DNA from: Candidatus Undinarchaeota archaeon
GTDB lineage: Archaea; Undinarchaeota; Undinarchaeia; Undinarchaeales; UBA543
NCBI GenBank assembly: GCA_964567575.1
Contig: CAZMMZ010000005.1
Coordinates: forward strand, 1,953 to 27,072
Reading direction: 5' to 3'
DNA length: 25,120 nucleotides
In this document: piece by piece, positions 3,164 to 22,120 of the stretch
Position numbering within the stretch: position 1 is the stretch's first letter
Layout of the letters: every line of letters starts with the position of its first letter
Notes under the pieces: model-generated
Seen by the model: only the letters and a program-made list of their open reading frames with translations
Database searches by the model: none
Told to the model about the DNA's origin: nothing
Position numbers and translations under genes: made by a program

Positions 3164-3337
3164 TTATTCAAGTGTTTTAACAATCTTTGCTTCGATTTTT
3201 GCTTTACCACTTGATGGTCTTGCAAGTATTGCATCACAGTTATTGCATTTTACAACTGTTGAAGCACTTCCAAAAATGTTCTGTTCTTTTCCACACTTGC
3301 ATTTTACTACAAGAAATTTACTTTTTGTTTCTCTCAT
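3164..3337 (-). CDS. rps27e: 30S ribosomal protein S27e (57 aa; absent from ORF track)
   Basis: Manual translation MRETKSKFLVVKCKCGKEQNIFGSASTVVKCNNCDAILARPSSGKAKIEAKIVKTLE. The ATG overlaps the rpl44e stop. Confidence 0.96.
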   Translation of the reverse strand: MRETKSKFLVVKCKCGKEQNIFGSASTVVKCNNCDAILARPSSGKAKIEAKIVKTLE

Positions 3338-3618
3338 TATTCTGCCACCAATTCGAATTTTTTAACTCGATAACTTTTTGAACGTGTAATTGACAGTTTG
3401 CAGTCTTCGCATTTGTATCGCATGTCCTGTCGTTGTGTTGGCTTCTTTCCTGAAGGCATAGGTTTTGGGAAAGATCCGTAACCTTCCATTTTCCTTTTGA
3501 AGCGTCTTTGACCAAGTGATTTCTTTCGTGTTTGTTTCTTTTTAGCAACCTCTAAGCTATGCTTAGTGTGCTTTCCGCACTTCTTGCAAAATATTTTTTG
3601 AATTTTTGGTACGTTCAT
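3337..3618 (-). CDS. rpl44e: 50S ribosomal protein L44e
   Basis: MNVPK...FCKKCGKHTKH...GQRRFKRKMEGYGSFPKP...KKPT...RYKCEDC, in the canonical rpl44e-rps27e-aIF2alpha order. Confidence 0.96.
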   Translation of the reverse strand: MNVPKIQKIFCKKCGKHTKHSLEVAKKKQTRKKSLGQRRFKRKMEGYGSFPKPMPSGKKPTQRQDMRYKCEDCKLSITRSKSYRVKKFELVAE

Positions 3619-3742
3619 TCTCCGTTACTCTCTCCTCTGTTTCTGTTTTTCCTCCAGTTCTTGAATGGGCGCCCGGAGGGTGCGCCTAGGACATTCAGCT
3701 CACGTTGTTCGCTGAAGTCCTGATTTGAAATTGGTTAGTTGG
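3619..3742 (-). repeat. Structured intergenic element, copy 1 of a dispersed family
   Basis: Fills the gins-rpl44e gap. Minus strand reads CAATTTCAAATCA-GGACTTCAGC[loop]GCTGAA-T-GTCC-TA-GGCGC-ACCCTCCGG-GCGCC...AGAGTAACGGAG-A-ATG, collinear with 19170-19300. Confidence 0.8.
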
Positions 3743-4342
3743 TTAACTTACTATTTCAGCTTTTTGTTTGTTTATGAAAATCTCGGCATTCTGTTCTGGA
3801 ATTTCAATAATGTCCCCTTCTTTGAAAGGCCCATAAGATTTAAAGTCCGCTCCAAGCATTTCCGGTAATTCTTGGAGAATTTTTACTTTTATATAAGTTG
3901 TGGTTGGTTCGTTTTCCTGTATAGTTTCCTTTATTTCCGGTTCAATTTTCTCTTCTTCCACAATTTCCTCTTTTTTCTCAACTTTCTTTACTGGTTTGTT
4001 TTGTTTCATGGAAAGTTCTCTGTGCTTTTTAATAATTTTAACAACATCTTTGAAAACTTGCTCTTCGCGCTTTGTCATTTCTCTTGTATCAATTCGCATT
4101 CCGCTACGTACCGCTGTTAATGCATTGTTTAGAATCTTTCGTTCACGCCTGTCAAGAATATCTTTGAGAATGTTTTTGGCATTTCGCATTTCAAGTTCTA
4201 CTAAATCGTCTTTTGGACCTTTTCGATCGAAATACTCGTCAACGCTTTTGTAAAAAGAATCATCTAATTCGTAAAGCTTTTCGCTCTTGCGTTCATTGTA
4301 TTGTATCTCACGTAATGTATCGTAAGTAATTACTTCAGTCAT
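3743..4342 (-). CDS. gins: GINS complex subunit (Gins15/Gins51 type)
   Basis: [14 protein letters not shown]...LYELDDSFY...RRERKI...TKREEQVF helical domain, a charged linker and a C-terminal B-domain ([21 protein letters not shown]). ATGA overlap with the primase gene. Confidence 0.88.
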
Positions 4343-17677: not shown

Positions 17678-18369
17678 TTTATTTTTTTACCTCTAATTGA
17701 TTTTTTAATATATCTGAGAACTCCTATTAATGTATTTGCTTCCCGTCCAGTTACTACAGCTCTCCCAAGAATCTTCTTGAACATTGTGTTAAATACTTTG
17801 TGCTTTTCTGCCGGATAACCACTTTTCTTCATAATCTCTTTCATGTTTTGATTAATCAAAGAATTTTCTTTTGCACCTGCTAATCGACTATCACTTGTTT
17901 GTTTCAAATCTGATAATTCATACAATGTTACTGCAACAGCATGTGATAAATTCATACTTCGATACTTTGCAGAAGTTGGAATTGTTGTAATAATATCACA
18001 CTGTTCAAGAAAATCATTTGAAAGTCCATCAGGTTCTGGACCAAACACAATTGCGATTTTTCCTTTCTTATTTTTAATTTTTCCTTTCAAATCGCTAAGC
18101 TGCGTGGTCATACGCAGGAAGTAATCATCCTTGCTTGTTTCAATGCAAGTGGTTCCTATAACATAATCATACTTTTTGAAATTAAATTTCTTGGAATGCT
18201 TTGCATTTTGCAAAACATCTTTCGCATGAACAGCCATCATACTTGCTTCATCTGTAATTTCATGCGGATTAATCATCTCAAGTTTTGTAAAACCAAAATT
18301 CTTCATAGCTCTGCACACAGAGCCAATATTTCCTGAATAATGTGGTTCTATCAAAACTATTGTAATCAT
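17665..18369 (-). CDS. trmJ: SPOUT RNA methyltransferase, TrmJ/TrmH group
   Basis: EPHYSGNIGSVCRAMKNFG, IVFGPEPDGL and SMNLSHAVAVTLYE motifs. Confidence 0.88.
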   Translation of the reverse strand: MITIVLIEPHYSGNIGSVCRAMKNFGFTKLEMINPHEITDEASMMAVHAKDVLQNAKHSKKFNFKKYDYVIGTTCIETSKDDYFLRMTTQLSDLKGKIKNKKGKIAIVFGPEPDGLSNDFLEQCDIITTIPTSAKYRSMNLSHAVAVTLYELSDLKQTSDSRLAGAKENSLINQNMKEIMKKSGYPAEKHKVFNTMFKKILGRAVVTGREANTLIGVLRYIKKSIRGKKIKCQY

Positions 18370-19169
18370 TTTTTAGTTCCTAAAATATAATCTCGAATCT
18401 TCGCGTTTCCACAAACCAACAAATTCTTTGCAACAAGTTCATTTCCTTTGTAAATTGTTTCATTGCCTTTGAAATCTGTTATGACGCCGCCTGCTTCTTT
18501 TACAATAAAATTTCCTGCAACAACATCAAGGTATCTTTTTGAGCCTGCGTAAATAAGCGATTCAAAAGATCCACTTGCAATTTTACAATAATCTATTGCA
18601 ACTGCTCCTGCTAATCTTGAATGGCGAGCTGTGTGGAAGATGTCTGTTATTTTTTTAATGCTATCAAAATCTGCTTTGTATGAACATTCAAGTAAAACAT
18701 TTTCTGGGGTTTCTTTTTTGCTGGTGTAAACTCGCTCACTGTTTTTGTAAGCGCCTTGTCCTAGCATTGCATAGTATTCTGATTTGCTCACAAAGTTTTT
18801 TGTGTAACCAACAATGTCAACATTTTTCTTTGCATCAAGAACTGCAATTGAAGTTCCGAAATACCCAATCCCCATTTTGAAATTAAAAGAGCCATCAAGC
18901 GGGTCTACAAAAACAAGGTAATCAGCATCTCCGTTTCCAATATCTACAATTCCTGCTTCTTCTGTTGTGAGTTTAATATTCTCATTTGTATTTTCTAATT
19001 CTTTAATTATAATATCTTCAGCAACTTTATCAACAACCATTGTCATATCGCCGCCATAACCTCGTCCAACTTCTTCAGTTCCAGTTTGCTTTTTGTAAAA
19101 TTTCATAACTTCGTTTGTTGTTTTGGTTCCTATTGTTTTACAAACTTCAAGCCATTCGTCTTTCTTCAT
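18366..19169 (-). CDS. Inositol monophosphatase family (archaeal IMPase/FBPase class IV-like)
   Basis: VDKVAE, TEE, DPLDGSFNF, RLAGA and YLDVVAG motifs. ATGA overlap with trmJ. Confidence 0.88.
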   Translation of the reverse strand: MKKDEWLEVCKTIGTKTTNEVMKFYKKQTGTEEVGRGYGGDMTMVVDKVAEDIIIKELENTNENIKLTTEEAGIVDIGNGDADYLVFVDPLDGSFNFKMGIGYFGTSIAVLDAKKNVDIVGYTKNFVSKSEYYAMLGQGAYKNSERVYTSKKETPENVLLECSYKADFDSIKKITDIFHTARHSRLAGAVAIDYCKIASGSFESLIYAGSKRYLDVVAGNFIVKEAGGVITDFKGNETIYKGNELVAKNLLVCGNAKIRDYILGTKK

Positions 19170-19300
19170 CTCCGTTACTCTTTCATTTTATCCTTTTTAT
19201 GCCTTATCCTATGATGGCGCTCCGGAGTGTAGCGCATACGACATGAAGTCCCATTCGCTTCGCGAAGGGACTTAAGTCCTTTAATTGAAATTGTAATAAT
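19170..19300 (-). repeat. Structured intergenic element, copy 2 of a dispersed family
   Basis: Fills the pfkB-IMPase gap. Minus strand reads CAATTTCAATTAAA-GGACTTAAGTCCC-TTCGCGAAGCGAAT-GGGACTTCA-T-GTCG-TA-TGCGCT-ACACTCCGG-AGCGCC...AGAGTAACGGAG-ATG. Confidence 0.8.
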
Positions 19301-20224
19301 CTATTCAGAAATTCGTGCGCCATCACTCATACAAGCGCGTGCTGCAAATGAACTTCCTTGTTCTCCAGCTTCTTTCAAAGTTTTCCCAGCTGCATATGCA
19401 GAAAGGAAACCAGCTGCGTAGGCATCGCCTGCGCCATTTGTGTTTACAAGTTTTTCCAATTGCACAACCGGAATCTTGTGGATTTCATCACCGCATCGTA
19501 TCATTGATCCATTTGCTCCGAGTTTTACAATTGCGATTTTTGCAATTCGTGCAAGTTCTTCTAAAGCATCTTCTGGTTCGCTGAATCCTGTGTATTCTTT
19601 TGCTTCTTCCTCATTTGCAAATAAAATATCAATTCCATTAATTGTTTGTTGAATATTTTCTTTGAAGTTTTTCACAACTCCTGGATCTGCAAGATCAAAA
19701 CTGATTTCAAGATTTTTTGATTTAGCGAGCTCGATTGCGGTTTTTGTTAATTCATTTGCACCGCTTAGCTCGTATGCAGTTGTGTGAAAAATTTGAGAAT
19801 TTTCAAATTGAGTTTCATTTATTTCAAATTCTTGTGAAACTCCGAAGTCCAGAACAAAAGTTCGTTCTCCATCTTCAGTTATGAATGTGTGGCAGACTCC
19901 GCTTTGCCCTTCTTTGTCTGTAATGTATGATTCAACTTCTCGTTGTTTAATATCACTATGATAAAGCTGGCCGATGCTATCGTTTCCAACTGTTCCAATA
20001 AGTCCGGTTTGTGCTCCGAGCATTTTCGCACCGACTACAACATTTGCTGCTGACCCGCCAGGGATTTTCAAACCAGTTTCAATTTCTTTTGCAAGCTTTG
20101 CTGATTGCTCTGGTGTTGCAATATGAAAGAGTCCTTTTGTAAAGCCAAGGGTTTGTATATGCTCATCGCTAGTATTTTGTATAATATCTGTTACGAGATT
20201 TGAAAGTGCTACTATTTTCTTCAT
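19301..20224 (-). CDS. PfkB-family carbohydrate/nucleoside kinase (adenosine-kinase-like)
   Basis: PGGSAANV, GTVGNDSIG, DGERTF, FANEEEA, KLGANGS and NTNGAGDAYAAGF signature. ATG at 20224 preferred. Confidence 0.9.
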   Translation of the reverse strand: MKKIVALSNLVTDIIQNTSDEHIQTLGFTKGLFHIATPEQSAKLAKEIETGLKIPGGSAANVVVGAKMLGAQTGLIGTVGNDSIGQLYHSDIKQREVESYITDKEGQSGVCHTFITEDGERTFVLDFGVSQEFEINETQFENSQIFHTTAYELSGANELTKTAIELAKSKNLEISFDLADPGVVKNFKENIQQTINGIDILFANEEEAKEYTGFSEPEDALEELARIAKIAIVKLGANGSMIRCGDEIHKIPVVQLEKLVNTNGAGDAYAAGFLSAYAAGKTLKEAGEQGSSFAARACMSDGARISE

Positions 20225-20272
20225 ATTGACATTTGTCACTCGTGATTGTTCTTGTTTATAAAAGTTGTGTTA

Positions 20273-21680: not shown

Positions 21681-21888
21681 ACGATTAGGGAATTTATTTG
21701 GATTTAAATTTGGGAATTAAAGAAATACTTATATAGTATATCCTTGAGTATATACTTCGGTGTGTGAAGATTTATTACTAATCTTTTATGCGCCATTCGG
21801 CGCGTCTCAAAGATAAAAATGTTCGTAGAGGAGAGGAGGAGTCTTGACCGTCTTCCACCACTTCCTCGACGGGCACCATAATTACCAT

Positions 21889-22075
21889 CAAGACGGTTAC
21901 CACCCACATAATCTTTTGAGACGCACCAGTATTTTAACAAATTTTAAATCAGGGCTTCGCGAAGCGAATGCCCTCTCGCCATCCTCTGTGGCGAGACAGA
22001 GCCAGCAAGACGGTTACCACCCACATACTCTTTGGGACGCCCTATATTTTCATAAAATTATAATCAGGGCTTCGC
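21889..22075 (+). repeat. Imperfect tandem duplication with ~117-nt period
   Basis: CAAGACGGTTACCACCCACATA is identical at 21889-21910 and 22006-22027, and AATCAGGGCTTCGC is identical at 21947-21960 and 22062-22075, with related sequence in between. Confidence 0.9.
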
Positions 22076-22120
22076 AGTCCGGCAGAGTTTTAAAGTATGG
22101 AGAAGAATAGGATGTTATAG

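Follow-up and report, generated by a model that had tools for sequence, protein, structure and literature searches.

Hairpin-pseudoknot repeats between packed genes of an Undinarchaeota archaeon: a probable family of gene-less mobile DNA elements

Two gene gaps in the genome of a Candidatus Undinarchaeota archaeon, one between gins and rpl44e and the other between a pfkB-family kinase gene and an inositol-monophosphatase-family (IMPase) gene, are filled almost from stop codon to start codon by collinear structured sequences, which raises the question of what these sequences are and how they came to lie between unrelated genes. The Undinarchaeota belong to the DPANN archaea and have tiny genomes, for which, to our knowledge, hardly any mobile DNA is known. 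The window analysed is the whole stretch of 25,120 nt at positions 1953-27072 of contig C5 of genome G000 (745 kb, 18 contigs, 82% complete). The results indicate that the two sequences (copies 1 and 2, both of a long form) and a third copy of a short form probably belong to a family of gene-less, non-autonomous mobile DNA elements that is confined to a few Undinarchaeota lineages. The two gaps and the elements in them are composed as follows.

3743-4342, minus strand: gins, upstream of copy 1 (Gins51_C, E 1.4e-19)
3620-3736, minus strand: copy 1, a long form of 117 nt that fills the gap between gins and rpl44e
3721-3736, minus strand: AT-rich leader of copy 1, conserved genus-wide (alignments A1 and A2)
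3689-3720, minus strand: hairpin 1 of copy 1, a 10-bp stem with a bulged T at 3693 and an 11-nt loop with GA at both ends
3668-3686, minus strand: hairpin 2 of copy 1, which is stem 1 of the pseudoknot, with the loop pentamer at 3674-3678
3651-3657, minus strand: nearby alternative partner for the hairpin-2 loop of copy 1 (7 bp with one G-T, from the alignment to model R1, see below)
3620-3624, minus strand: terminal pentamer CGGAG of copy 1, the 3' strand of the long-range pseudoknot, within the 12-mer at 3620-3631
3337-3618, minus strand: rpl44e, downstream of copy 1 (Ribosomal_L44, E 9e-20)
19301-20239, minus strand: pfkB-family kinase gene, upstream of copy 2 (E 1.9e-48)
19170-19293, minus strand: copy 2, a long form of 124 nt that fills the gap between pfkB and the IMPase gene (extension alignment A4)
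19246-19273, minus strand: hairpin 1 of copy 2, a 12-bp stem with a bulged T at 19253 and a GAA triloop forming a mini-hairpin apex
19217-19235, minus strand: hairpin 2 of copy 2, with the loop pentamer at 19223-19227
19170-19174, minus strand: terminal pentamer of copy 2, pairing with the hairpin-2 loop and adjoining the IMPase ATG (19167-19169)
18366-19169, minus strand: IMPase gene, downstream of copy 2 (Inositol_P, E 3.6e-36)

Both elements start 7-9 nt after the gins and pfkB stop codons and end 1 nt from the rpl44e ATG and 0 nt from that of the IMPase gene, in agreement with the preliminary description of this DNA, and the bulged-T hairpin 1, the TA linker, hairpin 2 and the common 12-mer (3620-3631 and 19170-19181) that it listed are all present. 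Along each copy the order is an AT-rich leader, the bulged-T hairpin 1, a linker, hairpin 2, a linker of 47-48 nt and the 12-mer, the 11-nt core of which occurs only three times in G000. The purine-rich spacer described at 34-36 nt does exist, and is really the fixed-length 47-48-nt linker common to all long forms. The identical 12-mer abutting the ATG is likewise there, and it holds the 3' strand of a long-range pseudoknot.

Two further relatives had been noted at 21939-22001 and 22055-22075. The former turned out to be a canonical short form (copy 3) and the latter the left part of a truncated second copy within a tandem duplication.

21936-22004, plus strand: copy 3, canonical short form, 69 nt (model R1, 83.3 bits)
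21952-21973, plus strand: hairpin 1 of copy 3
21976-21981 with 21989-21994, plus strand: stem 1 of copy 3
21984-21988 with 21997-22001, plus strand: stem 2 of copy 3
21889-21910, plus strand: left unit of a 22-nt exact direct repeat flanking copy 3
22006-22027, plus strand: right unit of this repeat, beginning 2 nt past copy 3
22003-22078, plus strand: second tandem unit, with the repeated flank, the leader and, at 22067-22075, the 5' arm of hairpin 1, beyond which the sequence is unrelated (pairwise alignment A3)

Copy 3 has the same leader and hairpin 1 as copies 1 and 2, followed by a compact pseudoknot, and its DNA fold has a z-score of -3.6. The 22-nt repeat around it belongs to a tandem duplication of about 118 nt, the second unit of which stops inside hairpin 1. 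On the minus strand, an ORF of 78 aa without a Pfam match lies at 21704-21940; its first codons and upstream region are duplicated beyond copy 3 (22003-22030), so that the duplicated target here is the 5' end of a gene and not a 3' end. A tandem winged-helix gene adjoining copy 3 was considered as linked to the element and rejected; it is confined to G000 and G001, and its distribution does not follow that of the element.

For the identification of further copies, a covariance model (R1) was built from 11 canonical copies, with copies 1 and 2 left out. Both nhmmer and R1 found 14 copies in G000. Over 61 archaeal genomes, R1 gave 36 further matches, which are located in G001 (5) and G002 (13), both of the same genus as G000, in G004 (17), a member of another family of the same order, and weakly in G011; in the 56 other archaeal genomes the R1 search found none. 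Database records with copies of the same element belong to Undinarchaeota or UBA543, and the exact 22-nt hairpin 1 was also seen in Naiadarchaeum. Hairpin 1, stem 1 and stem 2, in this order, were found in copy 3 and in copy 1, the latter being a full-length match to the model from which it had been left out (3649-3736, 39.3 bits, E 8e-8). On copy 2, R1 matched the hairpin-1 core alone (19252-19267, E 0.02). This copy represents a subfamily of its own: over 79 nt it is 91% identical to a copy in G002 (contig C20), and the subfamily has seven more copies in G002 and two in G001; judged from the alignments, copy 2 is a member of the family through this subfamily and through the common linker and pseudoknot. 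No Rfam family was matched in the window at the gathering threshold, and a search with 11 copies and their flanks at E up to 10 returned only neighbouring tRNAs and sub-threshold noise; ARAGORN found no tRNA in the window. In the literature no description of an Undinarchaeota hairpin-pseudoknot element family was found.

Several other repeated motifs were seen along the way. An identical 22-nt hairpin 1 is present in two MAGs of the Woesearchaeota, a different DPANN phylum, and in groundwater metagenome contigs (loci L080-L082, L097, L100, L102, L105 and L107) in a different repeat context, where the stem is longer by 3 bp and is followed by a different second hairpin; this hairpin may be a module common to several repeat families. 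Two copies in G001 (C2:84224-84292 and C1:13185-13255; L028 and L032) have extra hairpins and a second leader-like motif within the hairpin-2 loop region, and may be nested or recombinant elements. At four loci of G002 (L053, L060, L061 and L040), a conserved module of about 35 nt with hairpin potential of its own lies just upstream of elements of the copy-2 type, which suggests composite or nested repeats. Right after two G000 copies, in the regions of C5:55276 (L001:126-162) and C7:13377 (L007:126-160), there is a perfect palindrome of 18 nt, in the former region with an extra half-site ahead of it; it looks like a second dispersed motif that often adjoins the element.

Copies of the family have one unit in common: first a hairpin, in which there is usually a bulged pyrimidine and a loop of GAA or GA...GA type, and then an H-type pseudoknot. 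Among 37 distinct copies of the short form, pairing was found in 94.7% of the cells and changes on both sides at 18 of the 20 pairs across three helices, a result equalled by none of 500 shuffles; shifting the 3' partners cut the pairing to 36-47%. Stem 1, which was no part of R1, therefore tests the structure independently, and its pairing reached 92.5%, with covariation at all four pairs. The hairpin-1 stem as seen in copy 1 covaries family-wide, and one copy has a hairpin 1 of entirely different sequence and the same shape. The compensatory changes noted in the preliminary description are part of a significant covariation, seen in copies well beyond the window; with further copies present and Rfam unmatched, none of the results that would have refuted that description was obtained.

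In all 12 long forms, hairpin 2 is followed by the essentially ungapped linker of 47-48 nt, and the 3' extension of copy 1 aligns without gaps to those of the others. A reading of its purine-rich spacer as a duplicate of the gins 3' end, suggested by the likeness of the spacer to the G001 junction, was dropped, because the same ungapped 48-nt extension is found in three independent long forms. The last five bases of the long forms are complementary to the hairpin-2 loop, usually as CTCCG with CGGAG, with three different compensated variants. When the long forms were aligned by MAFFT without regard to structure, 12 of 12 had this long-range helix paired, and three of its five pairs are compensated. 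The 12-mer is therefore the 3' terminus of the element, and the short forms are the same pseudoknot with a linker of 1-3 nt. The nearby alternative partner of the hairpin-2 loop, of the type present in copy 1, was seen in only two of the 12 long forms. The copies in the window extend the picture of the family by its long form, by the long-range pseudoknot and by two empty sites.

These empty sites were found at the orthologous junctions of close relatives, as proposed in the preliminary description. The gins and rpl44e matches of G001 are about 6 nt apart, compared with 134 nt in G000, and the gap contains no element; a reading of the junction suggests that the gins stop codon and the rpl44e start codon overlap there. 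In G002, 34 nt separate the pfkB and IMPase matches, compared with 131 nt in G000, with a TATA-like spacer and no element, and the IMPase gene of G001 has no element upstream either. At the level of sequence comparison, this shows that the element entered both junctions after these species diverged. Since the empty sites contain the ATG and the codons after it, the ATG belongs to the target genes and not to the element. The suggestion of a portable translation-start cassette was not supported: GGAG lies 0-1 nt from the ATG in these copies, in contrast to the Shine-Dalgarno peak of the genome, where GGAG/GAGG upstream of ORFs peaks at 5-11 nt from the ATG and is found at 0-1 nt in only 7 of 724 ORFs (G000). 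Two observations at these junctions count against a mobile element. At the pfkB/IMPase junction the element replaces the 34-nt spacer and is no simple interruption, and no target duplication was detectable around copies 1 and 2.

Target duplications were found elsewhere in the family. Exact flanking repeats of at least 10 nt surround 16 of 34 copies, compared with 14 of 646 controls with mismatched flanks, and the right-hand repeat begins no more than 9 nt from the element's end. Around about half of the copies there is a duplicated target of 9-40 nt, often the 3' end of a tRNA gene. Three G000 copies lie behind tRNA-Ser, tRNA-Gln and tRNA-Arg, respectively, and each has behind it a duplicate, 16-18 nt long, of the 3' end of that tRNA. 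The duplicated ends begin at the T-stem and extend just past the end of the tRNA, as they also do in G001, G002 and G004. One copy in G001 follows one tRNA and is trailed by the 3' end of another; on such evidence, some copies appear to carry flank from an earlier site. Split tRNAs, tRNA mimics and primer-binding sites were considered for the duplicated ends and rejected; the ends keep the genomic trailer and have no added CCA, and the upstream tRNAs are complete. One long-form copy in G002 (C17:13491-13615; L044) is followed by about 17 nt resembling the start of rpl44e (5-6 codons), fused to an unrelated membrane-protein ORF. This start may be a carried flank that now provides the ORF with a new N-terminus.

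Most copies are located just 3' of stop codons or tRNA genes. Twelve of the 14 copies in G000 share their strand with the upstream gene, and seven have their start no further than about 8 nt from that gene's stop codon; in the other genomes, a crude count gave 15 to 8 in favour of the same strand. Some copies are situated between convergent genes. In G004, a short form (C9:26240-26304; L031) lies, as read by eye, apparently in frame within a coding region rich in Lys, Glu and Pro, with the frame open on both sides. In five to six of the long forms an ATG is found 0-3 nt from the terminus, and in one tRNA-associated sublineage a T-loop-like tail stands ahead of four different duplicated tRNA ends. 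The position of the ATG may reflect short homology between the element tail and start-codon contexts.

Could these copies be cis-acting structured RNAs (3'-UTR stabilisers, processing sites or start-sequestering 5'-leaders) which were duplicated and kept for the regulation of their neighbours? The co-orientation with the upstream gene, the starts close to stop codons and the strong covariation of the pseudoknot would fit such RNAs, and the hairpin-2 loop is anti-Shine-Dalgarno-like, its partner lying close to an ATG in the long forms just mentioned. Copies are also better conserved between species (81-91% identical) than the flanking genes (70-79%), a difference that speaks for mobility and yet could reflect function rather than recent spread. 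Against this, the same junctions exist without the element in sister species, the neighbour genes are functionally unrelated, and the sites of copies also include gaps between convergent genes, positions behind tRNAs and, apparently in frame, the inside of an ORF. Furthermore, wobble pairs are nearly absent, GGAG is off the usual Shine-Dalgarno spacing of this genome, the stem-2 sequences of many copies are not Shine-Dalgarno-like, and there is no Rfam match. The mRNA-processing or regulatory RNA proposed in the preliminary description is disfavoured, and a cis-acting role as the reason for the family is unlikely. Ribozymes of the HDV-like, twister, pistol and hammerhead types were rejected as well; their helix order does not fit, and Rfam gave no signal.

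An RNA could also have spread in the manner of a SINE-like retroposon; a reverse transcriptase acting in trans would copy it, and target-primed reverse transcription would insert the copy. The precise 3' end with a left leader of variable length, the target duplications of 9-40 nt, the 3' flanks brought from earlier sites and the placement where read-through transcripts would contain the element would all suit such a process. It is nevertheless quite improbable, given that RVT_1 was not found in the four element-bearing genomes (which are incomplete, and a virus-borne reverse transcriptase is possible), that there is no A-rich or other tail, that wobble pairs are scarce and that the apex of the hairpin has its stability as DNA, being weak as RNA. 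As for the tRNA-linked duplicates, they reach from the T-stem as far as the 3' end of the tRNA, which is the classic footprint of integration, and might be attL/attR scars with a short remnant of deleted viruses or plasmids that had integrated by a tyrosine integrase. Against this, one and the same structured unit of about 52-70 nt lies between different duplicated targets, mostly not tRNAs, the duplications vary in length, no Phage_integrase was found in the four genomes and copies 1 and 2 are not at tRNAs; this origin is very improbable. The reading as an unannotated mobile element family in a DPANN archaeon, one of those put forward in the preliminary description, is backed by the empty orthologous sites, the target duplications, the restriction to a lineage and the subfamilies.

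A search for the machinery that moves this probable mobile element gave negative results. RVT_1, Phage_integrase, Y1_Tnp, the TnpB nuclease domain, Cas1, IS110 DEDD, DDE_Tnp_1 and rve were not found in G000, G001, G002 and G004 (78-82% complete), and the controls were matched. Within the order, RVT_1 (PF00078) was found only in G011 and Cas1 (PF01867) only in G010, which has no element. Phage_integrase (PF00589) was matched in 14 of 14 control genomes. A Y1-HUH (RAYT/TnpA) gene, which the preliminary description proposed to look for nearby, was not found: Y1_Tnp (PF01797) was not detected in 13 genomes of the order (75-98% complete) and was detected in six control genomes. Scans with the exact hairpin-1 pattern found no gene-carrying parent in genome or metagenome contigs, with no match whatever in IMG/VR, and BLAST against phages and plasmids gave no match to the element. 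A gene of 578 aa between two inverted copies on contig C5 was considered as a transposase and proved to be ABCE1. The four element-bearing genomes, at 78-82% completeness, also yielded no XerA-type recombinase of the Phage_integrase family, a notable observation with regard to chromosome dimer resolution.

Whether the element acts as DNA or as RNA can be approached through its pairs. Counted over the stems, 669 pairs are Watson-Crick, 5 are G-T and 9 are A-C, and one-sided changes are nearly absent; this scarcity of wobble pairs and one-sided changes is unusual for a selected RNA. At the apex of hairpin 1, most copies have a 7-nt DNA mini-hairpin with a GAA loop, and in the others the loop begins and ends with GA. 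This mini-hairpin has a Tm of 76.5 C as DNA, compared with 39 C for a closely related RNA mini-hairpin, and the motif occurs at single-strand priming sites (PMC13037366). Together, the near-absence of wobble pairs and the DNA mini-hairpin apex suggest that the element would act as folded single-stranded DNA and not as RNA. Nearest-neighbour DNA folding showed no strand asymmetry, both strands folding equally well. The span of the pseudoknot, about 50 nt, is more in keeping with RNA than with DNA, which counts against the DNA reading. The orientation bias fits selection on a transcribed RNA and a replication-linked single-stranded-DNA step alike.

A mechanism can be sketched tentatively from these features. 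The mobilising machinery would recognise the fold of the element, the pairing of the hairpin-2 loop with the terminus would mark its 3' boundary, and short homology of the tail to its target, be it the T-loop of a tRNA gene or the surroundings of a start codon, could help to pick the insertion point; the target duplication would leave the struck gene or tRNA intact. The mobiliser could be a protein encoded in the missing part of the genomes (78-82% complete), or the host's own replication and repair could move the element through template switching. On a bolder reading, the element would spread in the form of a single folded strand of DNA, with no transposase of a known family dedicated to it, its 3' end set by the loop-terminus pairing and its landing guided by the target-like tail, for example by template switching at replication that copies 9-40 nt again and spares the gene; taken as a whole, this is unlikely. 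We know of no homology-guided, self-limiting insertion described for prokaryotic repeats.

The closest known systems include the Rickettsia palindromic elements (RPE) and the Correia, BOX/RUP and ERIC repeats. Like these, the Undinarchaeota family consists of short gene-less repeats with a conserved fold and subfamilies in a reduced genome, which are scattered in intergenic regions, at times in frame in ORFs, with no evident transposase. No sequence relationship to them was seen, the comparison with RPE being one of described features. The Undinarchaeota family differs from them in having a hairpin and a pseudoknot instead of one long palindrome or terminal inverted repeats, as well as variable target duplications and a preference for the 3' ends of genes and tRNAs. 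The palindrome elements of IS200/IS605 and the REP/REPIN-RAYT system, in which a HUH Y1 enzyme acts on folded single-stranded DNA, share with it a core hairpin with an extrahelical base, an end base-paired to an internal segment, an orientation bias and stems of Watson-Crick pairs only. The REP/REPIN-like character proposed in the preliminary description stands as an analogy only, as no Y1/RAYT gene was found, the copies are single direct asymmetric units and not inverted doublets, and target duplications are present. IS200/IS605 elements use a fixed target of 4-5 nt without duplication, unlike the diverse targets of this family, duplicated over at least 10 nt in nearly half of the copies scored, and neither TnpA (Y1) nor TnpB was found in G000, G001, G002 and G004.

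Classical MITEs are also small, non-autonomous, multi-copy and flanked by target duplications. The ends of the Undinarchaeota element, an AT-rich leader and a GC-rich pseudoknot strand, do not read as inverted copies of each other, the duplication is not fixed and ranges from 9 to about 40 nt, and no parent IS is known. With tRNA-targeting integrative elements and casposons it shares the insertion behind the tRNA T-loop and a 3'-end duplication that keeps the tRNA intact, and direct repeats of the tRNA 3' end at both ends were found for the tRNA-linked subset only. It differs from them in its size of 52-125 nt, its lack of genes and its targets, which are mostly not tRNAs; the tyrosine recombinase of the former (PF00589) and the Cas1 of casposons were not found in the element-bearing genomes, nor is the duplication of the fixed 14-15 bp of casposons. 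The reverse transcriptase (PF00078) that a SINE-like retroposon would need was likewise not found in G000, G001, G002 and G004, all of which are incomplete genomes. Integron attC sites resemble the element as fold-defined single-stranded-DNA recombination sites with extrahelical bases, situated between a stop codon and the next start codon. On reading, however, the ends of the element are not complementary (no R''/R'), no IntI/PF00589 match was obtained, and the copies are dispersed and form no cassette array.

For the organism, these results mean that a structured unit of 52-125 nt has probably moved recently between essential, tightly packed genes and behind tRNA genes, with none of them broken. 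Copies 1 and 2 now separate rpl44e and the IMPase gene from their upstream genes: rpl44e has lost its overlap with gins, and the insertion of copy 2 leaves the IMPase gene without the 34-nt promoter-like spacer of the sister species. Copies of such an element can pass for riboswitch-like RNAs, and operon junctions are reshaped by them. Should the mechanism be new, with folded single-stranded DNA, an end defined by internal pairing and homology-guided targeting, it would add a class of mobile elements and provide a natural case of gene-sparing insertion in a minimal genome.
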